NCBI GenBank assembly: GCA_963802945.1
Contig: CAWDKY010000032.1
Location: forward strand, 77,797 to 141,796
DNA from: an uncultured delta proteobacterium
GTDB lineage: Bacteria; Desulfobacterota; RBG-13-43-22
Reading direction: 5' to 3'
DNA length: 64,000 nt
Shown here in pieces: positions 8,802 to 41,365 of this stretch. Made by a program: the position numbers and the translations under genes. Position 1 is the stretch's first letter; each line of letters opens with the position of its first letter. The notes below the pieces were generated by a model. It saw only the letters and a program-made list of their open reading frames with translations, made no database searches and was not told where the DNA came from.

Positions 8802-8818
8802 CGAGATTACTCCTTAAC

Positions 8819-8941: not shown

Positions 8942-8969
8942 TTAAAATAAATTGGTAATACGCAAATTG

Positions 8970-25084: not shown

Positions 25085-26104
25085 TCCGGTCCAATTCTCC
25101 AGAGTCTCTTGGTCGCAACAGTCGAAAAAAGGTGATCTATTAAAAAGGGAATACCTTCTCCGGTTTTGGCCGATATGGGAATCACATCCTGTTTGAGCTT
25201 TTTAAAAGCCCTTTGGATCCTTTTGAAATTGGCTTGCGATGGAGGTAAGTCCATCTTATTGACCACCACCAGTCGAGTTTTATCCAAAAGGGTCGTGATT
25301 ATAGGCCTCCATTTCCTTTACCAGGGTCTGATAGGAAAAAAAGGTTCTTTCCCTGGTAAGGAGCCGTCAATCAAAAACACTAGAACTTCAGTCCGATCAA
25401 TGTGCTTGAGGAATTTGAGTCCCAGCCCGGCCCCCTCGCTTGCACCGGCAATAATCCCAGGAATATCGGCTATAGTCAAGCGCTGTCCTTGATTATTTTC
25501 AAGAATCCCAAGGTTGGGTGCAAGGGTGGTAAAAGGATAGTCGGAAATTTTGGGTTTGGCGTGCTGAAAGCCTGGAAAGCAGGGTAGATTTCCCGGCATT
25601 GGGCAGGCCCACCAGTCCTATCTGGGCCAATACTTTCAACTCCAGTAACAGCCAGGCCTCGATGCCCGGCTCTCCTCTTTGGGCGAATCTCGGGGTCCGA
25701 TGAGTGGCCGTGGCAAAGTGCTTATTCCCCTTGCCCCCTCTCCCACCCCGGGCAACGACTAAGGTCTGACCTTCTCTGGTTAAATCCGCTAAGACTTCCC
25801 CTGTTTCCAGCTCCCGAACCAGGGTCCCCAAGGGAACGATGAGTCGAATGTCCTGGCCTTTTCTGCCGTCTCGATCATTACCCTGACCGTGGGCCCCTTT
25901 GGGGGCCTTAAAATGCTGATGAAAATGATAATCCTGTAAGGTCTGACACTGAGAGGTGGCGGTAATCAGGACGTCCCCGCCCTTGCCCCCATCGCCGCCG
26001 TCCGGACCTCCCCGGGGTTTAAATTTCTCCCGTCGGAAGCTTAGGCACCCATTGCCCCCGTCTCCGGATCGAACAAAAATTTTGGCTTCGTCAAAGAATT
26101 TCAA
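25081..26104 (-). CDS. obgE: GTPase ObgE, split by frameshifts
   Basis: [37 protein letters not shown] across three frames. Confidence 0.93.
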
Positions 26105-26300
26105 AGATAGCTGGAAGGAAACTGTGATGGGTTACGGTTTAATAAATCCTCATCCGAAGAAAATGAATTCGGATGAGTGCGGTCACTTATCTGCTTTCAG
26201 CTATCAGCAAAGACCGTTAGCAGCAATGGGTTGGCTAAATCCAGATCGCTGACTGCTGGAAGCTCCATCTGGAAATCTTTGATTTCCGGATGGGCACTAA

Positions 26301-26549
26301 TTAATAGACGCTGATCCTTTTTCGGTCTTTTCCCCAGCGCTCGAAGGTCACCACCCCATCTATTTTGGCAAAGATGGTAAAATCCTTTCCCAATCCCACG
26401 TTTTCACCGGGATGAAACTGGGTGCCGACCTGCCGGACCAGGATATTTCCGGCCTTAACCTTCTGGCCGCCATATCGCTTGATTCCAAATCGTTGTCCTT
26501 CGCTATCTCGGCCGTTTCTTGAACTGCCGCCGGCTTTTTTATGTGCCAT
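26301..26549 (-). CDS. rpmA: 50S ribosomal protein L27
   Basis: [16 protein letters not shown]. Confidence 0.99.
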
Positions 26550-26559
26550 AACAACCCCT

Positions 26560-26874
26560 CTAAACCCCTTGGATTTCTGTTATTTTAAACTGGGTATAAG
26601 GCTGCCGGTGTCCGACCATTTTCTTATACCCTTTTCTTCTCTTATGTTTAAAAATCAATATCTTCCGGTCACGGCCCTGATGGAGGATCTCCCCGACCAC
26701 CGAAACCCCATCCAAATAGGGTTTGCCCACCAGAATCTCCTGCTCCCGGGCGACAAATAGGACATTGGGTATGGATACCGTTGTCCCTTTTTCGCCCTCT
26801 AAGGTTTCGATCCGAATCACGTCTCCGGGGGCTACCTGATACTGTTTTCCCCCGGTCTGAATAATGGCATACAT
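26560..26874 (-). CDS. rplU: 50S ribosomal protein L21
   Basis: [12 protein letters not shown]...GHRQPYT. Confidence 0.98.
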
Positions 26875-27126
26875 GGCTGTTCCCTCACAAAAATTTATAA
26901 ATAAAAAGTTTAACATTTAGTAAACTTTTTGTCAAACATAAAAATAATTTACTTTTAGAAGTCATTTTTAATTGAACGCGGATTAAAAAAGAAACTCCCA
27001 GAACCTTGGACTTATTGATTATCTTGTAATTTTAAGCTTTTATTCAACATACTGGAGTGGTATACTGTCAGATAAGATTGGAAAAAACGAACTTCGTATA
27101 TTAAATTGTTGGAGCATTTAAAGGAT

Positions 27127-27313
27127 GATGGATTCGTAAAAAGTCATCAAATGAGACGGCACAGTAAAAAGCTCCGGATACAAGGCGCACAAATCCTGAG
27201 GAATGAGGCATACAAAGAAGTACGCCGCAATAAGCTTGCCCCGCTGAAAAGCGGGGAAGGGTGCAGAGCAATCCCGCGAAACGCGGGACTGATGGACTTT
27301 TTACGAGGCCGTC
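27127..27313. repeat. MITE-like element, copy C, with 6-bp flanking duplication
   Basis: IR GATGGATTCGTAAAAAGTC...GACTTTTTACGAGGCCGTC; AAGGAT on both sides; core TACAAGGCGC...GAGGAATGAGGC..AC..GAAGTACG..GCAAT shared with 46266-46459. Confidence 0.85.
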
Positions 27314-27325
27314 AAGGATGAGACC

Positions 27326-27772
27326 ATGGAATATCATGAAATACTAAAACGACTTGCACCATGCGGTCTGAGTTGCGCTAAATGTATGGCCTTTATTGAT
27401 GGAGACATAAAAAAGAACGCCAATGAGCTGAAAAGATTGCTGGGAGCTTTTGACAGCTACGCTGATCGATTTTCTCGTTTCAATCCGGTTTTCGAAAACT
27501 ACCCTTCCTTCAAGAAGTTGTTAGAGCATTTCGGGCAAGGCGGTTGTAAAGGTTGTCGTAATGGGGATTGTGTATATCCGAACTGCGGTGTGGTTGCCTG
27601 TTATAAACAGAAAGGAATCGATTTCTGTTTTCAATGCGATGAATTCCCCTGTGAAAAAACTAATTTTGATCTAAATCTCAAAGAGAGATGGATTAAAATG
27701 AATAATTTGATGAAGCAAAAAGGCGTCGAGGCCTACTTTGAGGAGACGAAAGATTCGCCCCGATATATTTAG
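27326..27772 (+). CDS. DUF3795-type Cys-rich protein
   Basis: APCGLSCAKC, CKGCR, CFQCDEFPC. Confidence 0.8.
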   Translation: MEYHEILKRLAPCGLSCAKCMAFIDGDIKKNANELKRLLGAFDSYADRFSRFNPVFENYPSFKKLLEHFGQGGCKGCRNGDCVYPNCGVVACYKQKGIDFCFQCDEFPCEKTNFDLNLKERWIKMNNLMKQKGVEAYFEETKDSPRYI

Positions 27773-28010
27773 CTTCTTCGATTATAGAAGGCTTTGATCC
27801 AGTTGATTGGCCTTAGAGGAATCTATACAAATAATTTAGGAGGCGGGACATGAAACGTTTATCGTCAGTATTGCGGCCTGGAAGACCATCCATTTTTTTA
27901 ATAATGATTGGATTGTCGTTGCCTACATGAAAATGAAGTAAAGTAGGTGGAAGTTCGTATATTAATTATTATGTGTCTTAATGATGAATATGAAGGAGAT
28001 TGAGGAAATT

Positions 28011-28793
28011 ATGGATGAATTAATAGAAGTGAGACAGCACGAGAATATTGTTGAAGTTGCTTTGAATCGGCCCAAAGCATTTAACGCCTTCAATCTTGAA
28101 ATGATTTCGGAGCTGGCAAATATTTTAATGAGGCTATCTACGGAGAGTTCTGTGAAAGGTATTGCCCTTACAGGAAAAGGAAGGGCCTTTTGTGCCGGTG
28201 GAGATCTTAAATGGGCTGTTCATTTTTCTGAGAAGCCCGGTTCTTCGTTCCACAGGTTAGCGTCACAATTACATCAATCTGTTGTTGAAATCCGGAGAAT
28301 GAATAAACCTGTTGTAGCCGCCATTAATGGTCCGGCAGCTGGAGCAGGTTTTGCCTTAGCCTTAGCCTGCGACTTTCGTGTCATGGAAGAATCGGCAGTT
28401 CTCACACAGGCCTACACCTCAAATGGTCTTAGCATGGATGGAGGTGGTAGCTTTATGTTGCCGAGAGTTGTTGGATTTGCCCGTGCTTTAGAAATTGCCG
28501 CATTTGACAAACCTATATCGGCGAAACAGGCGATGGACTGGGGATTGGCAACCAAGGTAGTTGAAGATGGGACGGCTCTGAAAGTGGCCATCGATATGTT
28601 GAATGAATTAGCAAAGGTTTCACTTCATTCTTTTGGCTGGTCGAAAAAATTGCTTAATGAATCTTTCAGCAATTCATTCGAATCACATATAGAATTAGAA
28701 AGAGAAGGACTTTCTGACTGTGCAAACCATCCTGATGGGAAGGAAGGACTGAACGCTTTCATTGAAAAGCGAAAACCTGTCTTTAACCGTTAA
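28011..28793 (+). CDS. Enoyl-CoA hydratase/isomerase family protein
   Basis: LNRPKAFNA, FCAGGDL, AINGPAAGAG, AFIEKRKP. Confidence 0.93.
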   Translation: MDELIEVRQHENIVEVALNRPKAFNAFNLEMISELANILMRLSTESSVKGIALTGKGRAFCAGGDLKWAVHFSEKPGSSFHRLASQLHQSVVEIRRMNKPVVAAINGPAAGAGFALALACDFRVMEESAVLTQAYTSNGLSMDGGGSFMLPRVVGFARALEIAAFDKPISAKQAMDWGLATKVVEDGTALKVAIDMLNELAKVSLHSFGWSKKLLNESFSNSFESHIELEREGLSDCANHPDGKEGLNAFIEKRKPVFNR

Positions 28794-28848
28794 AAAGTTT
28801 ATCGGAAATATACACATAATCGGTCGCTGACCCAGGACGCATAGACTT

Positions 28849-28903
28849 GGATCAGCCCTTTTGTCTTGATATCTTACTGATACCATAATAAAGGTCCTGG
28901 CCC
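28849..28903. repeat. RAYT-associated repeat R1
   Basis: GGATCAGCCCTTTTGTCTTGATATCTTACTGATACCATAATAAAGGTCCTGGCCC; homologous to R2-R4. Confidence 0.8.
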
Positions 28904-28928
28904 TTTTTACATTCAACAATCATTCTCC

Positions 28929-29246
28929 ATGGAGGGTTTTATGGAATGGTATTATTATCTCGCTGGCTTCTTCGCTGGTTTGTTTTTAACCAATGCTATT
29001 CCACATTTCGTGCATGGTATATCCGGTAATCGTTTTCCGACCCCCTTCGCAAAGCCACCGGGCAAAGGATTATCATCTCCAACAGTAAATGTTTTGTGGG
29101 CTCTTGCTAATCTCATTATCGGGTACATCCTCTTTAGAGTGGGTATGGTCTCTCAAACAAATATATGGACCCTTGTCACGTTTTTTGCCGGTGTCGCTTT
29201 CGCCAGTATAGTGTTAAGCCTTACATTCATTAATAAGGAGCATTAG
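28929..29246 (+). CDS. Small membrane protein of unknown function
   Basis: About three hydrophobic segments; NAIPHFVHGISG.FPTPFA motif. Confidence 0.75.
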   Translation: MEGFMEWYYYLAGFFAGLFLTNAIPHFVHGISGNRFPTPFAKPPGKGLSSPTVNVLWALANLIIGYILFRVGMVSQTNIWTLVTFFAGVAFASIVLSLTFINKEH

Positions 29247-29305
29247 GAACTCAAGCTAATTAAGGCTTGTAACATAAACCCTGTAAGTGAGAAACACTGT
29301 TGGGT

Positions 29306-29369
29306 AGAATAAGGGTAGGCCTGTTGTCTTGATTTTTTACTAACACCATAATAAAAGACCCTATTTTCT
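29306..29369. repeat. RAYT-associated repeat R2
   Basis: AGAATAAGGGT...TTGTCTTGATTTTTTACTAACACCATAATAAAAGACCCTATTTTCT. Confidence 0.8.
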
Positions 29370-29452
29370 GTGCTCGGTCGGACGAAGAACACACTCGTAA
29401 AGACTATTCGTCATTAGGGGAGGCACCCTATAAGGGAGCACGGAGGTGCACC

Positions 29453-30304
29453 ATGACATCATGGGAGGAAACACCGCTTGGTAGGCTTACAAGCCATATG
29501 CATAACCTTTTTGAAGAATACTTTAAGAAGCATCCCCAAAGAGACCACAGTCAGGACAATGCTCTCCTCGAGGTCCGCAATCTTGTTCTTCAATCTGTTG
29601 AAATTTTTCTTAAAGAGTCCAGCATTCATAAGCAGTATGGCGTGCCGATTGACTCCTTAAGTCTAGTCTCTTTTGCTTCCGATGATGAACCCGTCAATCC
29701 TCAAAGTTCCTGGATACCCATTCCAGGCGGTGAGGATAAGAAACGTCCCGCCGGGATCACAAATGAGGAGTTTACAGAATTCTCTGACCGCCTTAGTAAG
29801 CTCTTTATCGATCACGGAATGTATACATCGGGTCTTTTCGTTAATGTGCTTAACCTTTTCCGCGACGCGTACTTAAGGCCTGCAGAGAACAGACCCTTCA
29901 GGCAAGGCACATACACAAGGCTTATATTCGGCAACATAGTTTACAATGAAACAATCAAACAACAGGCTGTACCCTGTGAGGTATGTGGAGAGAATAGGGT
30001 TGTCGATATTTGCCATATCATCCCGAGGAGAATCAAGGGCACACAGAAGATTGATAATGTTCTCTTCCTGTGTCCGTCTCATCACCGCCTTTTTGATGCC
30101 TGCATGTTGACTAAAGAGGAGTGGGATAAAGTACTTTGGACCAGGAAGTCACGCAAGTCACAGATTTACGCTGAGAAGGTTCTTAAAGTGGCACATGGGA
30201 AATTCTGGGAAAAAGTAGAAGCTGCCAATTACCAGAAGCAAACAACTTGGGAAATAGGGCTTCATGATCTCTACAAGTCGAACGAGAAAGACATCGATGA
30301 ATGA
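29453..30304 (+). CDS. HNH endonuclease-domain protein
   Basis: CEVCG...CHIIP...NVLFLCPSHHRLFD; GGAGG RBS. Confidence 0.85.
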   Translation: MTSWEETPLGRLTSHMHNLFEEYFKKHPQRDHSQDNALLEVRNLVLQSVEIFLKESSIHKQYGVPIDSLSLVSFASDDEPVNPQSSWIPIPGGEDKKRPAGITNEEFTEFSDRLSKLFIDHGMYTSGLFVNVLNLFRDAYLRPAENRPFRQGTYTRLIFGNIVYNETIKQQAVPCEVCGENRVVDICHIIPRRIKGTQKIDNVLFLCPSHHRLFDACMLTKEEWDKVLWTRKSRKSQIYAEKVLKVAHGKFWEKVEAANYQKQTTWEIGLHDLYKSNEKDIDE

Positions 30305-30480
30305 TCTTGTCTATATCCCGATAAAAAGAATAAAGGGGACAAACAGGAAATCAAAATAATTAAGAAAGCAACGTATAATAAAAGCATTGTGCTGACAGGG
30401 GATAAGCCCGTTTTGTTTTTGCAAAAGCCGATTGACCCGTGCGGCTGATTCCCCTCGTTCGGCACAGAAGAAGACAGGCT

Positions 30481-31251
30481 ATGGAACCTAAGCTATCCAC
30501 GATCAAGAGACTGTTCGCTCTTTCGGGCAATCAATGCGCATTCCAAGGATGCTCTGCTCCCATTGTTGAGGGTAGCGGCTCGATAACAGGTGTTGTGTGC
30601 CACATCTGCGCACGAAGTCCTGGCGGACCTCGCTACTACCCCATGCAAACCGATGAGGATCGACACGGATTCGAGAATCTTGTCTTGATGTGTGCCCGAC
30701 ACAGCAAACTCATAGACAATGAGCCGGAGCGGTACTCACCAAAATTTTTGCGAGACATGAAGACCATGCACGAAAAAGGTGGGTCGATAGAATTGTCAGC
30801 ATTACAAGCTCATATGGCTACACTCCTTTGGGAAAACTACAAGTCAATTCACATCTCAGCTGGTGGCCATGTCATGGTCAACAGCCCAGGCGCAATACAA
30901 GCTGAAAAAGTCACTATCAAAACAAATCGAGCCAGCATCAGGCCTGCTCTTCGCGAAGGCACGATCGCTGCGGATCGCTCCAAACGAAATTACGTGAAAC
31001 ACCTCATCGACCAGTATAACAATTTTGCCTCAAAGCAACCGGGGCGGAAGTTTTCGTTCGTAGCGATTTATGCTGATATCAAGAAACGTTTCGGGGCGCA
31101 TTGGGAAGAAAATGCTATTGAGAAATTTCCTGATATAGTGGCATACTTACAGCAACGAACTGACGGGACAAGGTTGGGAAGGATCAACCACGGAAAAGGC
31201 TATCCCAATTATTCGACATACGAAGAGTATAGGCGGAAATATCGGGAGTAA
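30481..31251 (+). CDS. HNH-domain protein with C-terminal ORF6C-like helical domain
   Basis: TIKRLFALSGNQCAFQGC...HICARSPGGPRY...NLVLMCARH; C-terminal IYADIKKRFG. Confidence 0.75.
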   Translation: MEPKLSTIKRLFALSGNQCAFQGCSAPIVEGSGSITGVVCHICARSPGGPRYYPMQTDEDRHGFENLVLMCARHSKLIDNEPERYSPKFLRDMKTMHEKGGSIELSALQAHMATLLWENYKSIHISAGGHVMVNSPGAIQAEKVTIKTNRASIRPALREGTIAADRSKRNYVKHLIDQYNNFASKQPGRKFSFVAIYADIKKRFGAHWEENAIEKFPDIVAYLQQRTDGTRLGRINHGKGYPNYSTYEEYRRKYRE

Positions 31252-31259
31252 TAAAGCGT

Positions 31260-31407
31260 AGAATAAGGTCAGGTTATTGGTCTCGATGTATTACTAAGAC
31301 CTTAATAAAAGATCCGTTTCTATTCTATTTATTTCAGAAGAGTTGGGTATGCTCAATAAAGGCCTGAAATGCGATTTGGCGTGTACGGATGTAAACAGGG
31401 ACTTTAT
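31260..31407. repeat. RAYT-associated repeat R3 plus 60-bp duplicated tail
   Basis: AAGGTCAGG...GTCTCGATGTATTACTAAGACCTTAATAAAAGATCC; 31348-31407 (TATGCTCAATAAAGG...GATGTAAACAGGG.CTTTAT) recurs at 32287-32346. Confidence 0.8.
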
Positions 31408-31559
31408 CCTTCCAAATGGCTTTGGGGACGCTGGTAAGAAAATAAATTATCAAAAGGAATATATGAGTTGTTTGCCGCATATCCCGAATGAGTTTCTTAT
31501 TTATTTATCAGCATCCCAATGTGTCTATAGATAGAAGCCGTTTTTTTAACAAACGGCAT

Positions 31560-31712
31560 TTATCCGTCATTTAGATTTTTCTTTTTGTCCTGCCCTTCAA
31601 CCTGGCAGGAAGATTTAGACATTCAGCCCTGGATGCCGAATTTCGGAAAAACCCACCGATTCAGGGCATACCAACCGGCAATAATAATCAACAACCAGAT
31701 AATTGTTTTCAT
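31560..31712 (-). CDS. Uncalled 50-aa membrane protein, candidate selenoprotein (UGA at codon 30)
   Basis: MKTIIWLLIIIAGWYALNRWVFPKFGIQG-UGA-MSKSSCQVEGQDKKKNLNDG*; AAGGA RBS; SECIS-like hairpin after the UGA. Confidence 0.65.
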
Positions 31713-31753
31713 TTTCCATCCTTAATGAAACCTAAGAACTCACGGTTCTTAAA

Positions 31754-31972
31754 TTACGAAGCTCATGAAAATCCCGAAGAAGAGGGGCCGCAGGAAGAGG
31801 AAAAAGACGCCTCATTCCCCGACTGCTCCCCCGCCTTGGAAAACGCTGATAACAGTCGAATGACCTTTTCTCCTTTACAATAAGGGCATTGAACCGTTTT
31901 ATCTTTTGAATTCAAGATTATTTTTTCAAAGGTTCGGGAACAATCAGAACATTGATATTCATAAATAGGCAT
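31754..31972 (-). CDS. FmdB-family zinc-ribbon protein, candidate C-terminal Sec (...GFS-U-AS*)
   Basis: MPIYEYQCSDC...CPYC; UGA at 31763-31765 followed by two codons, TAA and a SECIS-like hairpin. Confidence 0.8.
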
Positions 31973-32209
31973 ATTCATCCTCCTTCCCGTTTTCGAAGAA
32001 TATTTAATAAAATAATGATAAATCCCTTTTTGTCAAGGGTCGAATCATATTAAATGCTACCAAGATGGTAGTAAAATAGGGAACGTTGATTCATAATTAC
32101 TGTTACTGAGGGATGTAGATTCCATTCATCATAACTCTCAAGTTACTCCCTCCCCCTCCGTTCGTTTGAACAAGGGCTTGCCAATGGGATCAGGTCAAGA
32201 GTAAATAAC

Positions 32210-32346
32210 AGAATCAGGTCTTTTGTCTTGATCTTTTGCTAATACCAGAATAAAAGACCCTAATAGTTCACAACGGGAGAATTTGTTATGCTCAATAAAG
32301 GCTTAAAGTGCAATTTGGGGTGCACCGATGTAAACAGGGGCTTTAT
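32210..32346. repeat. RAYT-associated repeat R4 plus 60-bp duplicated tail
   Basis: AGAATCAGGTCTTTTGTCTTGATCTTTTGCTAATACCAGAATAAAAGACCC, directly upstream of the RAYT gene. Confidence 0.8.
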
Positions 32347-32405
32347 AAACAAGGAGTCAGGGCTGCTCTTGATTCTTATTAATACTTTATGAAAAAGATT
32401 GGAAT

Positions 32406-33386
32406 ATGTCCAGACCATTGAGAATAGAATACCCGGATGCCTGGTATTATGTCATGAATCGTGGGAGACCGAGAGAGGAAGTCTTCACCGGCCCAAAAGA
32501 CTACAGGCAATTTATTGAAGTCATAAATGAAACAGCGGGGATTTGGAAACTGCGGGTAGCGGCCTATGGTTTGATGCCCAATCATTATCACCTTTTAGTT
32601 CAGACACCCCATGGCAACCTGTCCCGCTGTCTGCGCCACATCGATGGGGTGTATACCCAGAGATTCAATCGAGCCCACGGCACTAACGGGCCATTATTCC
32701 GGGGGCGCTACAAGTCGATTCTGGTCGAAGCCGACAGTTATTTGCTCCCTCTGGTAAGGTATATTCATCGGAATCCCTTGAGGGCCGGTTTGGCAAAAAC
32801 AATGGCTAGGTATCCCTGGAGCAGTCACAAGGATTACTTGTCGAGTGCCGAAATGAACCGTTGGTTCAATAAAGCCTTTGTACTTTCCATGTTTTCTGGG
32901 AAAAAGCAAGAGAGGCTAAGGGATTATCGACGGTTTGTTTCCTTGAAAGATGAAGAGGAAATTATAGAGATTTTAGGGAGAAAGAAGTGGCCGTCGGTTT
33001 TAGGTTCGAGAGATTTTATCTATCGGATAAAAGAGAGGTTTTATTCGGGCCAGACAGATAATGAAGTACAACGGTCCAAGGCATTGGCTCCGAAGGTAAA
33101 GCAAATCCAAGAAGCAATAGAAAAATTTTATAGGATCAGCAGGAAAGCTTTGATGTCTTCCCAACGGGGAGTTTTCAATGAACCGAGGAATATGGCCATT
33201 TATTTGACACGCCAGTTGAGAGGGGACAGTTTAAACCAGATCGGCCTGGATTTTCGTATGAACAATTACAGTTCGGCGAGCAGTGCAATTGAAAGAACCA
33301 AACGGTTGATGGCCGAGGACAGGAAGTTAAGAACAAAGGCAAAAAAACTCTTTTTTCAGTTGAGCAAGAGTCAAAAGCAGACTTGA
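32406..33386 (+). CDS. REP-associated tyrosine transposase (RAYT, HUH Y1) with C-terminal DnaA-C-like HTH
   Basis: MSRPLRIEYPDA, MPNHYHLL (HUH), LFRGRYKS, YIHRNP, YPWSS; RNMAIYL...SLNQIG. Confidence 0.93.
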   Translation: MSRPLRIEYPDAWYYVMNRGRPREEVFTGPKDYRQFIEVINETAGIWKLRVAAYGLMPNHYHLLVQTPHGNLSRCLRHIDGVYTQRFNRAHGTNGPLFRGRYKSILVEADSYLLPLVRYIHRNPLRAGLAKTMARYPWSSHKDYLSSAEMNRWFNKAFVLSMFSGKKQERLRDYRRFVSLKDEEEIIEILGRKKWPSVLGSRDFIYRIKERFYSGQTDNEVQRSKALAPKVKQIQEAIEKFYRISRKALMSSQRGVFNEPRNMAIYLTRQLRGDSLNQIGLDFRMNNYSSASSAIERTKRLMAEDRKLRTKAKKLFFQLSKSQKQT

Positions 33387-33459
33387 CTCCTACGCGGCCC
33401 CTCCCAGGGAAAAGGCCCGATGGGAGGCCATCGATTATTTTGTGAAAGTCAGGATTTAA

Positions 33460-35112
33460 CTATACAGATATTGTCAACTTTGCTGGTGACTTTCTTCCTT
33501 GTTTATTCCAGTCAAGTGTTTTTTATCTTTTAAGGCGTTATAGGTTTTGCCCTACCAGGCGGGTTCCCCATCGCTCTGTGACATCCTACCCAACCCTTGT
33601 AATTAGAAAGTCGTCTGAGAGACGCTTTTACCTTGCTCAATTGGAGTTAGGATGTTGACGGGGAGTCATGGACTCTGTACTGGGAGGTCGCTTAAGCGCC
33701 TCAATGGAAGAAAACGATGATCTCCCCGCCTGTGTGCTCATCCCTTAGGCAGCCTTTTTGAGCACTCTCCTTTCGGGGGCCTGGTATTGTCCCACATAGT
33801 CGTTGTCGTCCCGAACGATGGCATGGATGATCCCTAAGAGCTTCCTCGATACGGCAATCAGCGCCCTCATCCTGCCCATGCCCCTGTCGGTCAGTCTGAT
33901 ATAATACTCATACAGGATTCCATTCTTTCTTATCGTTTGGATAGCCGCATAGAACAGGATTTTTCTCAGAAGGCTCCGGCCCTTCTTGGATATCCTTCTC
34001 TGCCCTTTTCTTTTCCCCGAACTGATCTCGTAGAGGTCAAGCCCCGCCAGCTTCAGGATTTCGGACTGGGAACTGAACTTCGAAAAATCTCCCACCTCGC
34101 CAATGAGACCGGCCACTGATACTATTCCCAGGCCTTTGATCGACAACAACCTGGAGCTAAAGGGTATCCGTTCGAGGGTGGATTCCATCTCGGCTTCTAT
34201 CTCGGCCATAAAGCGCTTTTCAGCTTCAAGCTGTAGGAGGATATGCCGGATGTCCCTGACGATACCGGCCAGACCCTCTTGGATACCTACCGTCCCTTGT
34301 GCCAGGGCAATCAGAGACTCCGCATCTTGAAAACCGAACTTGCCCCGGCTCCGTTTCCACATCTCTTCCCCCAGCGCCTTCTTGGATAAGCTGCCTATCC
34401 TTTCAGGAGTGGTATATCTTTTCAGGAGGTACTGAGCCGTCTTGCCCCGGATTTCCTTCAACACGGTTTTGAATTCAGGGAAGATAAGGTAGACGAGCTG
34501 CTGGAGTTGATTGAGCAGTGCGGTCCGCTCTCCCACGTGCCGTTCCCGGGCGTGGGTCAACATCCTCAGATAGGCCGCATCCCCCTCGGGGACAATGATG
34601 GTCAAAGCCCTTCCTAGTCGGATGATATCCGCGATCACCCTCGGGTCCTTATCGTCCGTCTTCAACGGAGAGTTGTCATTGACTTCCTTCATCTTCTTCG
34701 TGTGCATGGGGTTGACCTGGACCATTTTGACCTGTTTATCCGCAAGATAATGGACCAGGGGTTCAGCATAGGGGCCTGTAGATTCATAGCCAACGAGCAC
34801 CTCATCACATCCAAAACGGTTCTTACTCGCTATAGTCATACCCCAAAACTTTTCGAATCCTTCCCGGGTGTTGCCAAACCTGAAAGTCTTGGTGCTTCTC
34901 CCGTCCATGGTTGTGCAATACCCTGTGTTGCTGGCTAAGCCTATATCCACCGTGGCAATCAGCGTGCCTTCCTTCACCGTTTTTACCCTTTTCGCCCTCA
35001 GTTCTCTCATTGTCATCTCCTCCTTGTTTCCTAATCGGAATAAACAGCTCCAGAAAAGGAGGATATCCTTACTTCTTGTTCCCCTCAATCATGAACTACA
35101 ATATAGCAAGCT
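33460..35112 (-). mobile_element. IS110/IS1111-family element (inferred ends)
   Basis: CT dinucleotide at both ends (+ strand); joined ends give TTGACA-17-TATATT; about 285-bp non-coding 3' region. Confidence 0.75.
33745..35016 (-). CDS. IS110-family DEDD recombinase/transposase
   Basis: VDIG, YESTG, KTDDKD, SSGK, GRSLLRKILF; AGGAGG RBS before MTMREL. Confidence 0.96.
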   Translation of the reverse strand: MTMRELRAKRVKTVKEGTLIATVDIGLASNTGYCTTMDGRSTKTFRFGNTREGFEKFWGMTIASKNRFGCDEVLVGYESTGPYAEPLVHYLADKQVKMVQVNPMHTKKMKEVNDNSPLKTDDKDPRVIADIIRLGRALTIIVPEGDAAYLRMLTHARERHVGERTALLNQLQQLVYLIFPEFKTVLKEIRGKTAQYLLKRYTTPERIGSLSKKALGEEMWKRSRGKFGFQDAESLIALAQGTVGIQEGLAGIVRDIRHILLQLEAEKRFMAEIEAEMESTLERIPFSSRLLSIKGLGIVSVAGLIGEVGDFSKFSSQSEILKLAGLDLYEISSGKRKGQRRISKKGRSLLRKILFYAAIQTIRKNGILYEYYIRLTDRGMGRMRALIAVSRKLLGIIHAIVRDDNDYVGQYQAPERRVLKKAA

Positions 35113-35215
35113 GAACTCGTGATTTTCTAAGATCCTCCTTCCATGCAACCTTCGATTAGTAATCAATAATTCTTGTATCAGCGGACAGTAAGAATATTTT
35201 TTCAAAAAATAAAGC

Positions 35216-35250
35216 TTGACAAGTGAAAGTAGATGTGTTAGCATGCTAAC
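35216..35250 (+). promoter_or_regulatory. marR promoter with overlapping operator palindrome
   Basis: TTGACA-17-TAGCAT; perfect palindrome GTTAGCATGCTAAC at 35237-35250. Confidence 0.75.
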
Positions 35251-35269
35251 TAATAAGGAGGAAGTAAAT

Positions 35270-35702
35270 ATGCCACTTCTCGACCCATTCGAAAGCCTCG
35301 GCTTTCACTGCCATCTTACACTCAAGGCTTTCATCGGTACTCTACAGAGAAAGCTTAAGGGTACAGACGTGAGTCCAGCCCAGCTTGTAGCCCTTGCGCA
35401 CCTTATTGCCTTAGGACCGCTGTCCCAGTCCGAACTCGGTGACCGCCTTTTTATCACGCGGGCTACCGCTGTGCGGCTTGTGGACCGTATGGAGCGGGAC
35501 GGGTGGGTAAATCGCCAGATTGATCCTAAGGATAGCCGTGTGAAACGTGTAGTGCCTACGAAGAAAGCGACCGAGGTGTGGGAGGAGGTGTCTTGGGCGG
35601 GTCGGGGAGCTCTTGGATCAGGCCTATCGTGGCGTCCACCCTGCTGAGATCGAGACCGTAAAGCGGGTACTGGAGCGAGTGCGGCGGAACCTAAAGGGAT
35701 AA
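35270..35702 (+). CDS. MarR-family regulator, frameshift near 35605
   Basis: SQSELG...LVDRMERDGWVNRQIDPKDSR; second frame ends ...RVRRNLKG*. Confidence 0.88.
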
Positions 35703-35718
35703 TTTTTTTGATAATATT

Positions 35719-35732
35719 GTTAGTATACAAAC
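35719..35732. promoter_or_regulatory. Second putative MarR operator upstream of the cupin gene
   Basis: GTTAGTATACAAAC, 11/14 identical to GTTAGCATGCTAAC. Confidence 0.6.
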
Positions 35733-35816
35733 ATTTTTCACTTTTGCTTTAACCGAAAACGCGATAAAGATTTCATTCATTTTGTAAAAAGACTACTTAT
35801 CGGAGGAGGATAGTGT

Positions 35817-36218
35817 ATGAAAAAGAAAAACTCTGCCGAAGTTATACCCCGTGAAATGAAGAACGAAGGTATCAAAGGTGTTTTTGCCCGTTATCTCTGG
35901 TCAACAGACGACGGCTGCAAGAATTTTGCCATGCGAGTATTTGAATTTGAAGCGGGTGGTTACACTTCTTATCATTCGCATCTCGAAGATCACGAATTTT
36001 ATTTCCTTGAAGGCGAGCCTGCATATGTTGATGCTGATGGTAATGAAGTTCGTTTAGCCCCTGGCGATACAATTTATTGTCCTCCTAGAGAGCCGCACCA
36101 AATTAAGAATATGGGTAGGGCAAAAATGAGAATGATCTGCGTGATTCCGATTCTCGGGAGCGGCGATGGGAAGATGAGTACGGGTTATGTGAGGAGAGAG
36201 AAGCACAAGGGAGAGTGA
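35817..36218 (+). CDS. Cupin-domain protein
   Basis: FAMRVFEFEAGGYTSYHSHLEDHE...EPHQIKN. Confidence 0.9.
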   Translation: MKKKNSAEVIPREMKNEGIKGVFARYLWSTDDGCKNFAMRVFEFEAGGYTSYHSHLEDHEFYFLEGEPAYVDADGNEVRLAPGDTIYCPPREPHQIKNMGRAKMRMICVIPILGSGDGKMSTGYVRREKHKGE

Positions 36219-36270
36219 TTATTTGATGTGGTAGAGGAATAAAACTTTTACCAGAAAGGGAGGTACTGTC

Positions 36271-36750
36271 ATGTTTGCCACGGCATTGTATGTTTTGACC
36301 GGCTTGCTGCTTTTTATCTCTTTTCGTAAAGACAGAAAAAAAACCATTCAGGGATTAAAAAAATCATGGAAGGCTTTTGAAAATATCTTACCCCTGTTCC
36401 TTTCGATCATCATGATTATCGGGCTGGGGCTTGCCCTCTTAAGCCCCCAGGTAATATCAAAGTGGATGGGCGAAAAATCCGCCTGGCTTGGAATAGCGGC
36501 TGCGGCCTTTATCGGCTCGGTGACTCTGATACCGGGTTGGATTACCTTTCCTTTAGCCGCTGTCTTATTAAAGAGTGGAGCAGGCTTAATCCAGATAACC
36601 GTGTTTGTGTCCACTTCCATGATGGTTGGAGTTGTCACCATGCCTGCGGAAATAAGATATCTTGGACGAAAAGTCGCTGTTTTTAGAAATACCCTAGCCC
36701 TTGTTTTTTCCTTCATCGTATCCTTGATTATGTGGGAGGTGCTAAAATGA
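36271..36750 (+). CDS. Predicted permease (DUF318/ArsP-like), subunit 1
   Basis: Hydrophobic; GSVTLIPGWITFPLAA, EIRYLG. Confidence 0.8.
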   Translation: MFATALYVLTGLLLFISFRKDRKKTIQGLKKSWKAFENILPLFLSIIMIIGLGLALLSPQVISKWMGEKSAWLGIAAAAFIGSVTLIPGWITFPLAAVLLKSGAGLIQITVFVSTSMMVGVVTMPAEIRYLGRKVAVFRNTLALVFSFIVSLIMWEVLK

Positions 36751-37283
36751 TAAACTTGTTTAAAAGATATAGATTTTTTTTGGCAATGGTTTTAATTAAT
36801 CTGATTTTGTTGTGGTTAAACTTGGAAGCAGGATTAAGATCCTTCAAAATATCAGCCGACAACATGCTTCAAGTCTTTCTTATCATCCCGCCTATTTTTA
36901 TTCTGCTCGGCCTGTTGGATATTTGGGTGAAGAGAGAAACCATGATCAAATTGATGGGAGAAAGCTCAGGTTTACTCGGAATAACCATTGCTTTCTTACT
37001 GGGGTCTTTTGCTGCCGGTCCCCTTTATGCGGCTTTCCCTGTTGCAGGTGTTTTGTTAAATAAGGGAAGCAGGTTTTCTAACATAATCATTTTTATAGGC
37101 GCCTGGTCGACTACCAAAATCCCTATGTTATTATTTGAAACATCAACCATGGGTTGGAGGTTCATGCTGATAAGATTTATTCTGGACATCTTTGGGATCA
37201 CAGCCATTGCCTATCTCACCGAAAAGATAATGACCACCCAGGAGAAAGAGATTATTTATCAAAATGCCAATATGCTTGCGTGA
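36747..37283 (+). CDS. Predicted permease (DUF318/ArsP-like), subunit 2
   Basis: PPIFILLGLLDIWV, AGPLYAAFP, WSTTKIPM; ATGA-coupled to the previous gene. Confidence 0.8.
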   Translation: MINLFKRYRFFLAMVLINLILLWLNLEAGLRSFKISADNMLQVFLIIPPIFILLGLLDIWVKRETMIKLMGESSGLLGITIAFLLGSFAAGPLYAAFPVAGVLLNKGSRFSNIIIFIGAWSTTKIPMLLFETSTMGWRFMLIRFILDIFGITAIAYLTEKIMTTQEKEIIYQNANMLA

Positions 37284-37284
37284 T

Positions 37285-37460
37285 TAAAAACATATTCTAT
37301 CGAGATATTGACCATCTTTTCCTCCTCCGGTGCGGACAATGATTGGGGACCTTTCCAGCACTGAACGTGTTCTAAAGGGGTTGCATATTGGTTTAACAGT
37401 GTTTGTTTGATTAAGTATCTTTGCGAACAAATCATTCCTTCACCACCCCACTCACTTTCA
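37285..37460. repeat. 176-bp direct repeat, left copy
   Basis: Matches 42180-42355 with one mismatch seen (GGACAAT/GGACAGT). Confidence 0.95.
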
Positions 37461-37541
37461 GAGGTGATGTTGTGAGAAGGAGAACATTTAATCATTTAGT
37501 AAAAGGGATTCAGAGTTTAACTTTGTGGGAGGTCAGAGTCT

Positions 37542-38945
37542 ATGAGGAAAATTAGGTTTGCGCCGGTGATCTTTATGGTGAGTCTCCTGCTCACCACTAC
37601 TTCTTCGGCACAAGGCATGGATCAGCAAGCTGGAGGCGTTCGGGGAATAGAAGATCAAGCCACCGCACAAGGAAATGATTATCAGGCACTGAGCCTCGAG
37701 GATTGCCTGGCCTTGGCTCATAAGTACAACCCCCTTCTGGGAGCCAGCCGAGAGAAGATCCGGGAATTGGTGGCCGACTATGATGCGGCGCAATCAAAAT
37801 TTTTCCCTTTGCTTGTCCTGGGATCTTATTATCAACGACTTGCCCCTGACAGGCTGCCACCGGGCGGCTCTCTCCCGCCCGGCCAGCAGTTGTTTGGCCT
37901 TGAGACTCTCAGCAGTGTTACCGGGAAACAAATAATATTCGACGGCTTAAAAACCTATTACAGTTCCCGGGCCGCTAAGATTGGTATTAGAGCCCATAGA
38001 ATGGAAGTGCAACAAACCGGAGATGAAGTGGCCTTTGCGGTGACCGAGGCATTCCACCGCTTGATAGAAGCCAAAGAGAATCTTAAGGTGGCCGAGGAGA
38101 CTCTGCAGCAACGACAGGATTTTGCCAGACTCACCGAGGCCTTTTTTAAGGCCGGTAAGGTTACCCGCCTGGATTCCTTTCGCGCTCAATCCCAGGTTTC
38201 AGACGCAGAACAGGCAAGAGTAGAGGCGGAAAACGGGGTTCGCATGGCCAGGGAAATTTTGAGCCGCACCTTGGGGCTAAAAGAGCAAGTCGAGGTGGAT
38301 ATTCGGGGGCAACTGTCCGAGCAGTTCGCTCCGGCGGGTACTGTCGAGTCATTGTGGCAGGAAGCGTTAAAAAATAATCCTGAAATCAAGTCACTCGATT
38401 TAGGAATAGAGCAGAGCCAGGCGTCAATCAAAGCAGCCCGGGGCGGGTATTTCCCGGAGATCAGCCTGCAAGGAAGCGGCGGGGTGCGCCACCGGAACGT
38501 GGGCGGCACGGAGCCGGAATGGCTGTTTGGGGTCTTTATGGAATATCCCTTTTTTGAAGGAGGATTGACCAAAGCTCAGGTGGCCAAGGCTTCCTCCCAG
38601 AAGCTGCAGCTATTGGAGAAAAAGCGCGACTTCCTCAACACCCTCAAGGTAGATCTCACCACTGCCAGGACGGACCAGGAGAACTCACGCCAGGGGGTAG
38701 TTACCAGCCGGCAAACTGTAGCCACCAACGAAGAGGCATACGCCAGTGCCCAAACCCTTTACCGGAATGGCAAGGCCATCGGCCTGGATGTGTTGCAGGC
38801 GCAAGTGGAGCTCACCAGCTCTCGGTTCACCTTCATCAAATACGCGGTGGCATACGAAGTCGCCCGGGCGCGGATCAAGCAATTGGTCGGCTCCGGAGTA
38901 TCCAAACCTTATCAACAAACCGACATTGGGGGGCAAGAGAAATGA
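37542..38945 (+). CDS. TolC-family outer membrane efflux protein
   Basis: Signal peptide, two OEP repeats (ALAHKYNP, ALKNNPEI, YFPEISL). Confidence 0.92.
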   Translation: MRKIRFAPVIFMVSLLLTTTSSAQGMDQQAGGVRGIEDQATAQGNDYQALSLEDCLALAHKYNPLLGASREKIRELVADYDAAQSKFFPLLVLGSYYQRLAPDRLPPGGSLPPGQQLFGLETLSSVTGKQIIFDGLKTYYSSRAAKIGIRAHRMEVQQTGDEVAFAVTEAFHRLIEAKENLKVAEETLQQRQDFARLTEAFFKAGKVTRLDSFRAQSQVSDAEQARVEAENGVRMAREILSRTLGLKEQVEVDIRGQLSEQFAPAGTVESLWQEALKNNPEIKSLDLGIEQSQASIKAARGGYFPEISLQGSGGVRHRNVGGTEPEWLFGVFMEYPFFEGGLTKAQVAKASSQKLQLLEKKRDFLNTLKVDLTTARTDQENSRQGVVTSRQTVATNEEAYASAQTLYRNGKAIGLDVLQAQVELTSSRFTFIKYAVAYEVARARIKQLVGSGVSKPYQQTDIGGQEK

Positions 38946-40102
38946 AATTTTCTGGCAGAAAGAAGGCTGTTGGGGTTGCCTTAGGCATTCTAATCATAAT
39001 ACTGCTGGGCTATCGACTGTTCTGGTATCGTCCCGCAGTGGCCGTAACCGTGGTTAAGAAGGCAGAGATTCAGAGCAAAGGCCATGGTCCGGGCACGGTG
39101 CAATCCAAAGTGCCGGTGACGGTGAGCACTAAAATTACTGGGATTTTGGAAAAACTCCATACCGATCAGGGGGATCAGGTGCAGAAAGGCCAACTCCTAG
39201 CTGAACTTGATATAGCTGAGCTGAGGGCCCGAACCGCCGCCGCCCGGGCAGCCAAGAATCGTGCCCAGCGAGACCTGGCGCGGGCCGAAGCCGATTTAGT
39301 CAAAGCCCAGGCTAACTTGGCCCTGGCTCAAAGCAATTATCAGCGGGACATGGAAGTATTCAAGCCTGGCTATATTTCACAGGCGACCTTTGACAACACT
39401 AAAGCCGCTCTTAAGGTGGCGGAGAGTGAAGTCAATGCATCTCAAGCTGCTGTGGCAGCTTTGCAGGCGCAGGTTGATCAGGAGGAATCGGAGACCCATG
39501 CGGCCGAGGCGGTATTTGCCTATGCCCACATCCTGGCGCCCATGAACGGGTTGATCACCGTGCGCAAGGCGGAGGTTGGAGATACAGTATCTCCCGGAAC
39601 ACCCATCTTTCAAATGGTGGATTACCAAATCTGGGCAGCCTCCTGGATTGATGAAACCAAGATAGCCCAACTGCGGGAGGGACAGAAAGCTTCGATCAAA
39701 CTGCGCTCGGGGCGAGTTTACCAAGGGGAGGTTATCCGCCTCAACAAAGAGGCCGATACCGTCACAAGGGAGTTGGAAGTCGATGTGAAATTTAACACCT
39801 TACCGCATCCCCTTGTTATCGGCGAAGAGACTGAGGTGGACATTGATACGGGCCGCCAAACTGCTTTGGCCGTTCCCTTATCTTCCATCATTAAACGGAA
39901 CGGCTCTCAAGGGGTGCTGGTGGTTTCCAAGGGTTTGGCAAGTTTCCGTCCCGTTGTTATTGGGTTGCAAGACGAGCACCAAGCTGCCGTCCTGGAGGGC
40001 CTCAGGGAGGGTGATATGGTAATAATTAATCCGGCGGGAATTGAACCGGGGAAACAAGTCAAGCCAGAAATTAAGTCCCCAGGGAAGAAGCAGAACCCAT
40101 GA
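38942..40102 (+). CDS. Efflux periplasmic adaptor (MFP)
   Basis: N-terminal TM, GDQVQKGQLLA lipoyl half, coiled coil, APMNG. Confidence 0.92.
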   Translation: MKFSGRKKAVGVALGILIIILLGYRLFWYRPAVAVTVVKKAEIQSKGHGPGTVQSKVPVTVSTKITGILEKLHTDQGDQVQKGQLLAELDIAELRARTAAARAAKNRAQRDLARAEADLVKAQANLALAQSNYQRDMEVFKPGYISQATFDNTKAALKVAESEVNASQAAVAALQAQVDQEESETHAAEAVFAYAHILAPMNGLITVRKAEVGDTVSPGTPIFQMVDYQIWAASWIDETKIAQLREGQKASIKLRSGRVYQGEVIRLNKEADTVTRELEVDVKFNTLPHPLVIGEETEVDIDTGRQTALAVPLSSIIKRNGSQGVLVVSKGLASFRPVVIGLQDEHQAAVLEGLREGDMVIINPAGIEPGKQVKPEIKSPGKKQNP

Positions 40103-40165
40103 GCTTAGTCGAATTCCATCTTAATTTATAAGCAGATGCTTAGCCCCCCTCTTTAAGGAGGATTG

Positions 40166-41365
40166 ATGGATTTAGCAGTCTATGACCTGAAGCTTCATAA
40201 AGTCCGGTTTATCGCCACGATTATCGGGATAAGCCTGCTGTTTACCATTGTACTCGCCATGAATGGCCTGTATCGTGGCAATATCTATGAAGGCCTCGCT
40301 CTCATCAAGGCCACTAATCCTGATCTGTGGGTGGTGGAAAGATATCGGGGCGGACCTTTTAACGAACAATCCACCATGCCCGAATTTTACCATTATAGTG
40401 TTAAGGCCATCCCTGGCGTAGAGAAAGCCAGTTCCTATATTTCTTATGCCGTGGAAAGGCAGATCGGGGGCAAGAGCCAACATTTCAGCATCGTCGGCTA
40501 TGATGTCTTTGGCGGGCTCGGAGGGCCGCAAAAGATCTACGCCGGGAGGAATATCGAGCACGCCCATTATGAAATGGTCGCTCATCCAAAATTAGGGGTG
40601 CACCTTGGGGACACGGTTCCTCTGGGCCTGCATACCTATACGGTGGTGGGTTTGACCCGGGAGTCGGTCGATCCGCAGGGGGATCCTTTGGCCTACTTGT
40701 CTCTGCCCGATGCCCAGGAAGTGCTCTTCCAAAAAGACAATGAAGAAGTTCGCAATCAGCGAGAACAACTGCTTCGCACCCTTTCCAGCCAGAGCTATTT
40801 ATCTGCAGCTCAGGCGGAAAAATTGCTCCCCAAGTTGGAGCCCGACACCCACATTATTAACGCCATCCTGGTAAAGCTGAGACCCGGGGCGAATCGCGCC
40901 GAGGTAGCTCGCCAGATCGAAAGCTGGCTCTATTTCAATGTCTTCACCACTCAGGAAGAAACCCAACTGGTGCTGAAAGGGCGATTGGCCGGCATGACTC
41001 AACAGCTTTTGCTTTTTAGAATCCTTCTGCTGATCATCTCCGTAATCATAATTTCCTTGGTTGTCCATACATTCACCATGGAAAAAATTCGCAGTATTGC
41101 TGTCATGAAACTCATCGGTGCTCCTAATTGGGTAATTGTCCGGATGGTGATGGAACAGTCGCTCCTTTTGACTATCAGCGCCTTTTTATTTGGACTGGTT
41201 CTGATCCAGAATACTTACCCCCTATTTCCCAAAACCATATTGAGAGTCCCCAGCGATGACCTGATTACTTTTATAATAGCCTTTGTCGGGGGTGTCCTTG
41301 CCAGTATTTTAGGGCTTTGGCAGGCATTAAAAACCGAACCCCATATGGCCCTGGGGGAACAATAA
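40166..41365 (+). CDS. ABC efflux permease (FtsX/MacB/DevC-like)
   Basis: N-terminal TM, periplasmic domain, EKIRSIAVMKLIGA and three C-terminal TMs. Confidence 0.88.
   Translation: MDLAVYDLKLHKVRFIATIIGISLLFTIVLAMNGLYRGNIYEGLALIKATNPDLWVVERYRGGPFNEQSTMPEFYHYSVKAIPGVEKASSYISYAVERQIGGKSQHFSIVGYDVFGGLGGPQKIYAGRNIEHAHYEMVAHPKLGVHLGDTVPLGLHTYTVVGLTRESVDPQGDPLAYLSLPDAQEVLFQKDNEEVRNQREQLLRTLSSQSYLSAAQAEKLLPKLEPDTHIINAILVKLRPGANRAEVARQIESWLYFNVFTTQEETQLVLKGRLAGMTQQLLLFRILLLIISVIIISLVVHTFTMEKIRSIAVMKLIGAPNWVIVRMVMEQSLLLTISAFLFGLVLIQNTYPLFPKTILRVPSDDLITFIIAFVGGVLASILGLWQALKTEPHMALGEQ

Follow-up and report, generated by a model that had tools for sequence, protein, structure and literature searches.

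A TIRtron beside decayed terminal inverted repeat dimers in a variable accessory-gene region of an uncultured delta proteobacterium

Can a single-strand DNA transposase be the engine of a gene-capture array? This question is raised by a 64-kb stretch of DNA from an uncultured delta proteobacterium (G000:C32:77797-141796, where G000 is the source genome; hereafter the window, whose numbering is used below unless a contig is named), in which four similar repeats, R1 to R4, lie among unrelated genes upstream of a gene for a RAYT-like protein. A first-pass annotation of this DNA had proposed an integron-like capture array driven by that protein. By comparing the window with 40 relatives (41 genomes with G000, of which 14, G000 included, belong to its genus and 27 lie outside of it), we arrived at a different answer: the locus is probably a TIRtron, a unit with terminal inverted repeats (TIRs) around a gene for a TIRYT enzyme, beside worn TIR-dimer relics in a fast-changing stretch of accessory genes, and the duplicated module that we call R-tail is probably passive homology. 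R1 to R4 are neither the repetitive extragenic palindromes (REPs) of a RAYT nor attC-like sites.

A TIRYT enzyme and its inverted-repeat unit

The 326-aa product of the gene at 32406-33386 (+ strand) matches Pfam Y1_Tnp (E = 1.6e-11, 44.9 bits; cut-off, 23) and, over residues 232-296, Bac_DnaA_C (E = 2.8e-10, 40.5 bits; cut-off, 31.5). When PDB sequences were searched, residues 223-319 matched chains of DnaA domain IV (8btg E, 2.4e-5; 1j1v E, 5e-4), and E. coli TnpA-REP (4er8) was matched at an E value of 0.037 only. Three sets of residues, H60-Y61-H62, Y119-I120...P124, and W138-S139-S140, are unchanged in all six aligned homologs (this protein and five others), and both parts of the catalytic core are present: an HUH motif and a tyrosine, Tyr119, in a YIxxNP context. 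The score against the NCBIfam RAYT model NF047646 (REP_Tyr_transpos), 71.9 bits, is under the cut-off of 80, and that against the IS200 model NF033573, 16.1 bits, is far under the cut-off of 55. At least six further RAYT-like loci are present in the G000 genome.

The available excerpts of two papers (Di Nocera 2013, PMC3733652; Quentin 2018, PMC6006769) describe TIRYT proteins as RAYT-like, longer than RAYTs, and accompanied by terminal inverted repeats in place of REPs. According to the same excerpts, TIRYTs are common and their biochemistry has never been studied, many TIR elements occur as dimers or clusters, the motif GGGGWSAS is found in the majority of published TIRs, not all, and published TIRs are unlike DnaA boxes (PMC3733652, PMC6006769). 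Within the TnpA-Y1 proteins, as excerpted, subclass 2.1 equals the TIRYTs and subgroup 2.1.2 has a Bac_DnaA_C-like tail (PMC6006769). We assign the enzyme of the window to this subclass, 2.1.2, as a TIRYT, that is, a predicted RAYT-like HUH/Tyr single-strand DNA nuclease fused to a helix-turn-helix of the DnaA domain IV type.

The borders of the unit that holds the TIRYT gene were set by aligning four loci, those of G000, G005, G004, and G011, the last three having been found by a DNA search of the 40 relatives with the gene (89-92, 79, and 80% identity, respectively). On the left, homology among the four opens at GGGGTCAAG...; this end reads GGGGTCAAGTCTGCTCTTGACTC and lies 30 nt ahead of the TIRYT start codon in G000. 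On the right, homology with G004 closes at ...CTTGACCCC, which is the reverse complement of the left 23 nt and overlaps the stop codon. The unit in the window is thereby 1,038 bp long (32353-33390, + strand), and its two ends occupy 32353-32375 (left) and 33368-33390 (right). Its flanks are unrelated elsewhere: a gene for a DUF4268 protein and a thiolase-type gene in G004, a radical-SAM gene and others in G011. Since a discrete unit lies between unrelated genes in G004 and G011, the TIRYT unit has moved during the history of the genus, as a TIRtron. Enzyme and unit together are a member of the already described TIRYT/TIRtron class. What the first-pass annotation had called a RAYT with a DnaA-C-like domain is therefore a RAYT-like HUH/Tyr protein with a Bac_DnaA_C domain, as it had noticed, but, rather than the canonical, REP-associated type, a TIRYT that lies within an inverted-repeat unit of its own.

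The inverted ends of the TIRtron are 23-25 bp long, and each holds a 6-bp GTCAAG/CTTGAC hairpin. Ends of the G004, G005, and G011 units have 0-2 mismatches to the consensus, and those of G000 have 4 (left) and 2 (right). When folding was compared with that of shuffled sequences, the right end in G000 gave a z score of -2.3 and the left end, whose hairpin is no longer formed, -0.18. This type of end has 22 copies in the G000 genome at 4 or fewer mismatches, compared with 0 for each of 5 shuffled patterns, and a truncated copy of the TIRtron itself (C27:138084-138208, 87.5% identical) retains the left end and the first 24 codons. At the position of the published GGGGWSAS motif, the TIRtron ends of G005, G004, and G011 read GGGGTCAA (7 of 8 positions) and those of G000 read GGAGTCAG; the R repeats and the ends of shorter TIRYT units (see below) read GGGGTCAG or GGGTCAGG. 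Matches to the DnaA box (TTWTNCACA) number 5 in the window, where 4.4 are expected, and none lies within 28841-33392.

Origin, decay, and spread of the R repeats

A repeat search of the window recovered one family of direct repeats with four 58-nt copies (28841, 29304, 31258, and 32203), which show 72-78% identity to the reference copy. The four copies, R1 (28841-28905), R2 (29304-29368), R3 (31258-31322), and R4 (32203-32267), are co-oriented on the + strand and each spans 55-66 nt. As an independent test, a hidden Markov model (HMM) was built from 8 R copies outside the window (one from another G000 contig, three from G005, one from G011, and three from metagenome contigs). In the 64 kb of the window, this model found exactly four + strand matches, at 28849-28904, 29316-29360, 31267-31321, and 32214-32259 (E = 1.3e-9 to 8e-14), and its next-best + strand match had an E value of 0.83. 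Because the model was built outside the window, these four matches show that the repeats are real, far beyond chance, and they lie where the first-pass annotation had placed four homologous repeats. Its additional partial copy near 32353 was missed by the R model; this sequence is the left inverted end of the TIRtron, which aligns weakly to R (z = 4.5).

The make-up of R is clearest in a fifth full copy on another contig of G000 (C29:72691-72745), a near-perfect palindrome with a 17-bp stem (-18.3 kcal/mol, z = -8.85) in which a centre of 5 nt separates a 25-nt arm from its inverse. Across the genome, 73 matches to this arm (GGGTCAGGTCTTTTATCTTG...) were counted at 4 or fewer mismatches, compared with 0, 4, 2, 4, and 3 for shuffled patterns; 33 of the 73 have 3 or fewer mismatches, and 28 of these 33 fall outside open reading frames (ORFs) of 90 aa or more. 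The same arm forms both inverted ends of two shorter TIRYT units (C16:245751-246683 and C33:35404-36337) and also bounds gene-less mini-elements of 137 and ∼250 bp. Since the R arms are the inverted ends of short TIRYT units, R is a head-to-head dimer of TIRs with nothing between the ends. Its match to the left end of the short type (z = 6.8, equalled by 0 of 500 shuffles) is better than that to the left end of the adjacent TIRtron (z = 4.5, equalled by 1 of 500), and we consider R to be a dimer of a TIR subtype that neighbours, and is not identical to, the ends of this TIRYT. The tie between repeats and enzyme that the first-pass annotation had assumed holds at the level of the superfamily to which both R and the enzyme's own ends belong, but among TIRYT ends the closer matches to R are those of other paralogs.

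R1 to R4 have lost much of this structure. Folded as single-stranded DNA, they do no better than their shuffles (z = -0.18, +0.82, -0.25, and -0.99 for R1 to R4), so that the earlier description of imperfectly palindromic ends was correct and yet understated the extent of the decay. The three R copies of G005 have z scores of -3.15, -1.81, and -3.98. In R2 and R4, 5 nt of the 3' arm are gone. The four copies are 64-75% identical to one another but 73-82% identical to the master-like copies on C29 and on the metagenome contigs L061 and L073, a star-like pattern. From these comparisons, R1 to R4 of G000 are mutated, decayed relics, similar to a transposable element of the miniature inverted-repeat kind (MITE) or a REPIN.

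Only 5 strong R loci are found genome-wide in G000, of which 4 are those in the window, within 3.6 kb upstream of the TIRYT gene. A covariance model of R (E of 0.001 or less) gave matches in 8 of the 41 genomes, at one to four loci each: G000, 6 of its 13 congeners (7 of 14 in all), and 1 of the 27 genomes outside the genus, in which the matches contain long insertions. With so few loci per genome, R is a low-copy family, unlike REPs. The copies on C29 and in G011, G004, and G010 do not adjoin a TIRYT of this type, and in 10-kb stretches around the TIRtrons of G004 and G011 no R was found (best nhmmer match, E = 0.64). A strict R pattern searched in one genome per species hit 6 loci; 3 of them overlap one another on a single contig, which has the three-R arrangement of G005, and the remaining 3 look like chance. 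Among metagenome contigs, the pattern with one position loosened hit 21 distinct loci, of which 4 are true R (L059, L061, L073, and L074), and L074 has the same arrangement as G005. A search for other genomic copies, which the first-pass annotation had suggested, thus yielded one further strong copy in G000, on C29, and copies in members of the genus and in metagenome contigs. A search of Rfam returned nothing at an E value of 1 or less in 26000-36000, and a query of public sequencing runs with 28700-33500 listed none.

Two other ideas on the placement of R were considered and dropped. R positions could have been ancient orthologous sites, as a hydratase lies beside R in G011 and carboxyltransferases lie beside R in G011 and G004; these proteins are just 28% (crotonase/hydratase) and 43% (carboxyltransferase) identical, and the idea was therefore abandoned. 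The idea that every cassette has its own R was rejected on paralogs of the membrane-protein gene in G005:C108 and G009:C30, which have no R; homology to them begins just past R1.

The contig with the fifth R copy holds a second cluster of end-repeat relics. Within 600 bp (C29:72388-72987; L029 6389-6988) there are three different elements of palindromic or TIR type, namely a hairpin of 100 nt whose arms read GGGGTCAAATC..., the R dimer in its intact form, and a copy of GGGGGTCGGG..., beside genes for DksA/TraR-type and SEC-C-motif proteins. Across the G000 genome, a first stretch of ∼20-25 nt (GGGTCAGGTCT[A/T]T..TCTTG) is common to at least six unrelated types of downstream sequence, each with several copies, and several families of mini-elements appear to use one same end.

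Gene turnover around the R-tail module and its possible causes

R3 and R4 are each followed by a second repeat, present as two 69-nt copies (31339-31407 and 32278-32346) that are 84% identical. R3 with its spacer and tail (31258-31407, + strand) aligns with R4 with its spacer and tail (32203-32346, + strand, abutting the TIRtron) over ∼140 nt, after which homology ends; the module, R-tail, is ∼150 nt long, and the direct repeats of ∼140 nt seen in the first reading of the sequence were recovered by both repeat search and alignment. No further copy of the tail was found in the G000 genome by tblastn or blastn. The tail contains the start of a short ORF (MLNKGLKC...), but the idea of a peptide was rejected: the first 20 codons are alike in 4 copies, yet one copy has ATA for ATG, and variable sites fall 7:3:8 over the codon positions, which is not significant (hand count). 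A tail RNA was likewise rejected, with 1 compensatory change among 16 predicted pairs and a covariation term of ∼0.

The history of this region was read from the sister species G005, whose contig C40 matches the window collinearly (92-94% identity). Both genomes share a left part consisting of L21/L27 genes, an enoyl-CoA hydratase gene (27981-28793, + strand, in G000), R1 or its 88% identical ortholog Ra, and a gene for a small hydrophobic membrane protein (28929-29246, + strand; 105 aa, read as an ORF, with no Pfam or family match). Homology then halts at 29285, 18 nt short of R2. The first slot in G000 holds R2, an HNH_2 endonuclease-domain protein identified by Pfam (29453-30304, + strand, 283 aa), and a second HNH-type nuclease (30439-31251, + strand), whereas in G005 it holds a restriction-modification pair of an N6/N4 methylase and an EcoO109I-type endonuclease. 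The first R-tail copy follows (R3-tail in G000, Rb-tail in G005). In the second slot, G000 has an FmdB-family zinc-ribbon protein (CxxC_CxxC_SSSS; 31763-31978) and a small TGA-containing ORF (31560-31712), both on the - strand, and G005 has an 83-aa ORF and a PIF1-type helicase with a WYL domain. Homology resumes weakly at ∼32135 and clearly at 32178, and the second R-tail copy (R4-tail or Rc-tail) leads into a shared right part, in which the TIRtron is followed by a remnant of an rve-type transposase and, in G005, by Usp and MFS genes.

All four R-tail copies, two in each species, end their homology at one shared 3' position. Copies compared across the species are 74-80% identical, which is about what we would expect for unconstrained sites at 92% coding identity, so the R-tail copies may be orthologs. 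The junction between the membrane-protein and methylase genes in G005 has no R. Cargo is thus not invariant across relatives, a comparison that the first-pass annotation had proposed: both slots differ between G000 and G005.

Variation is not confined to the slots. Upstream, a DUF3795 gene and a dispersed repeat in G000 stand at the place that a sensor-domain gene occupies in G005. Downstream, the rve-type transposase remnant, presumably IS3-like and continuous in G005, is split in G000 (C-terminal remnant from 33391-33441, + strand, continuing at ∼42592-42700) by a 9.15-kb block found in G000 only (33442-42591). This block starts with an IS110-family insertion sequence (33492-35127, - strand; transposase, 33745-35088), which is missing from the same place in G005 and has 5 copies at 86-87% identity in G013, and continues with MarR, cupin, and permease genes and an ABC/HlyD/OEP efflux set. 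The ends of the block carry no R or TIR copy; both of its junctions bear a short AATTATTT-like string. More G000-only genes lie beyond it, up to the shared Usp/MFS genes at 48139-50396. The difference in cargo at the R-tail borders is real, yet turnover reaches past the repeats, and the region as a whole is unstable.

IS200/IS605 TnpA and E. coli TnpA-REP nick and rejoin hairpin-bearing, single-stranded ends. TIRYT enzymes may do the same to the hairpin-bearing ends of their own units, and this activity would produce and scatter solo and dimeric ends. The dimers would have landed between genes of an accessory stretch that changes fast, or would have travelled with it. The ∼150-nt R-tail is most likely passive, portable homology, across which gene blocks could be swapped or looped out by ordinary recombination, and this role would account for cargo that differs exactly at the borders of the module. 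The simplest account of the locus is that the accessory region is unstable and that relic end-repeats, chiefly the duplicated R-tail, provide short homology for exchange there.

Several points weigh against this account. The inner ∼30 nt of the R copies are better kept than the outer arms, and neutral decay alone predicts otherwise. No autonomous element with exactly the arms of R was found. The connection between TIRYT and R rests on sequence comparison. The turnover history is a single comparison with one informative sister genome, as L074 merely repeats G005. All R copies are co-oriented with the downstream genes and lie 26-112 nt before a gene start, which also suits a regulatory role. Finally, R-tail direct repeats surround different cargo in both species, and a site-specific cassette mechanism would look alike.

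The last two of these points lead to the rivals. If R, or R-tail, were a recombination site where gene cassettes are put in and taken out by the TIRYT as single strands, as in an integron, co-oriented repeats would part gene blocks, as they do; the frame is common to G000 and G005 with both slots different, the four R-tail copies share the 3' end of their homology, and the cargo is defence-like, as in many cassette arrays. In one form of this proposal, which we hold to be improbable, R-tail is the HUH/Tyr recombination site, and the DNA that enters and leaves beside the TIRtron consists of single-stranded circles, each with one R-tail and a defence block. Insertion of circles at R-tail would explain a shared R-tail frame with different cargo between direct copies, and direct repeats of R-tail around different cargo, as seen in both species, are predicted after the integration of a one-copy circle. 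Against capture, HUH enzymes act on hairpins (IS608 TnpA and TnpA-REP are examples), and since they need hairpins, the loss of hairpin potential in R1 to R4 disfavours it. R is nearer to the ends of other TIRYTs than to those of this one, the membrane-protein/methylase junction of G005 and the membrane-protein genes in G005:C108 and G009:C30 have no R, and the same TIRtron occurs in G004 and G011 without an array in the 10-kb stretches around it. Neither R nor a TIR stands at the ends of the largest difference between G000 and G005 (33442-42591), R loci number just 1-4 per genome in 7 of 14 genomes of the genus, and no tyrosine recombinase is encoded on contig C32 (PF00589; 4 matches in the genome, 0 on C32). 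Integron-like capture is therefore unproven, and we regard it, in whichever form, as unlikely.

R might instead be a portable promoter or operator that drives or regulates the downstream block, perhaps with the DnaA-type helix-turn-helix of the TIRYT as a repressor. The orientation and spacing of every copy relative to the next gene (26-112 nt upstream) fit such a role, as do the better conservation of the inner part of R, a TTGTCT-17-CATAAT arrangement in R1 and R2, and the position of the TIRtron's left end, which is homologous to R and directly precedes the start codon of the TIRYT gene. However, promoter-like sites are not enriched in the region (8 found, 8.3 expected from shuffles), R3 and R4 fail the promoter scan that R1 and R2 alone pass, and 28841-33392 contains zero DnaA boxes. 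In addition, the second base of a -10 hexamer is normally its most constrained, and in the putative hexamer of the R copies it varies among A, T, G, and C. We consider this role unlikely. A further proposal, in which segmental duplication within a recombination-prone region left R and R-tail behind locally and transposases had no part, is consistent with R3-tail and R4-tail as a plain direct duplication and with a tail that is found nowhere else in the genome. It conflicts with the presence of R on C29, in other members of the genus, and in metagenome contigs in unrelated contexts, with R arms that are the ends of TIRYT units, and with copy relationships that are star-like rather than serial. 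The dispersed R copies largely refute this proposal, and we give it very little credence.

Neighbouring elements and relation to known systems

The gene content that the first-pass annotation had read from the letters (a membrane protein, two HNH proteins, a candidate selenoprotein pair, and a transposase) was all recovered with Pfam, PADLOC, and the sequence itself. The second HNH-type nuclease was identified by PADLOC only (candidate-defence family PDC-M68A, 9e-28, and HNH effector models), as Pfam gives nothing for it; the ATG at 30484 is its likelier start. The HNH_2 gene had zero DNA matches across the 40 relatives searched.

The small membrane ORF of the second slot, MKTIIWLL...GIQG-TGA-MSKSSCQVEGQD..., has its in-frame TGA at 31623-31625. 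The TGA is present in 9 of 9 homologs (the copy in the window, a paralog at G000:C15, and copies in seven other genomes of the genus or family), and it is followed by a conserved hairpin, CCTGCC...GGCAGG, that also occurs as a compensatory CTTGCC/GGCAAG variant. The ORF looks like a candidate selenoprotein gene with an element similar to a selenocysteine insertion sequence (SECIS).

Three other non-coding elements were noted. A MITE-like element of ∼190 nt (27125-27315) has 20-nt inverted ends (27126-27145 and 27295-27314) and copies of 80-89% identity on at least 4 other G000 contigs and in many relatives; it has no Rfam match. A dispersed repeat of ∼90 nt, at 46375-46461 and 8814-8862 in the window and on a dozen G000 contigs, also lies just downstream of the TIRtron region of G005 (L045 4722-4816). 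Finally, a conserved, non-coding-looking element of ∼200 nt with an internal hairpin follows Rb-tail in G005, upstream of the PIF1/WYL helicase gene (G005:C40, L045, ∼8370-8590, - strand), and recurs in G000 at C45:12798-13055, C30:57283-57479, and C16:101384-101507. Rfam gave nothing at an E value of 0.1 or less in 4500-11500 of the G005 sequence, which includes this element.

The locus offers a compact test set: an enzyme gene that is intact and has hairpin ends of its own, a dimer of the sister type that is still intact elsewhere in the genome, and four dated relics. It is also one clean example of an exchange of gene blocks, mostly of defence type, whose limits fall exactly on the borders of a duplicated end-repeat module. 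Should modules of this kind provide portable homology, or be true sites of recombination, hot spots of accessory-gene turnover would have small transposon relics among their causes, and if R-tail were in fact a site for the TIRYT, the locus would be an integrase-free, HUH-driven counterpart of the integron.

Integrons and CALINs, the latter being clusters of attC sites without an integrase, are among the known systems that the locus resembles. Like them, the locus has co-oriented, imperfect palindromes among mostly co-oriented accessory genes, with content that varies between close relatives. Unlike them, it has no IntI-type recombinase on C32, its repeats are relics of transposon ends with degraded hairpins, attC-like folding at each border fails (z = -0.99 to +0.82), one junction in G005 is free of repeats, and variation is not limited to the repeat-bounded part.

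REP/REPIN-RAYT systems, reportedly the subject of work by Nunvar in 2010 and by Bertels and Rainey in 2011, resemble the locus in having an HUH/Tyr enzyme between inverted, hairpin-forming repeats and, in the REPIN doublets, two inverted units. They have hundreds of repeat copies where tens are found here (22 of the enzyme's own end and 73 of the R arm) and a single enzyme gene where G000 has several paralogs. Moreover, the unit described here lies at different places in related species, the protein misses the RAYT model, and GTAG precedes R2 and R3 alone. The locus also shares Y1 HUH chemistry and hairpin ends with IS200/IS605 elements that carry passenger genes, and a strand-specific bias of insertion in a single orientation, as in IS200/IS605, would explain the co-orientation of R. 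IS200/IS605 elements have subterminal hairpins without inverted ends and a TnpA of ∼130-150 aa, in contrast to the inverted ends and 326-aa protein of the TIRtron.

The available excerpts on the TIRtron/TIRYT class (Di Nocera 2013, PMC3733652; Quentin 2018, PMC6006769) match the locus in its Y1 protein with HUH/Tyr and a Bac_DnaA_C-type helix-turn-helix, longer than RAYTs; in its terminal inverted repeats, which open with GGGG(T)(C)A, partly like the published motif, and of which the right one overlaps the 3' end of the gene; and in ends that are moderately abundant, dispersed, found as dimers or clusters, and without a DnaA box. Compared with the TIRtrons in those excerpts, this one has four same-orientation dimer relics from a neighbouring TIR subtype within 3.6 kb upstream and a ∼150-nt R-tail whose two copies enclose a slot with different cargo in each of two species. 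As it stands, the locus is an ordinary case of a class already described, set in unstable surroundings.

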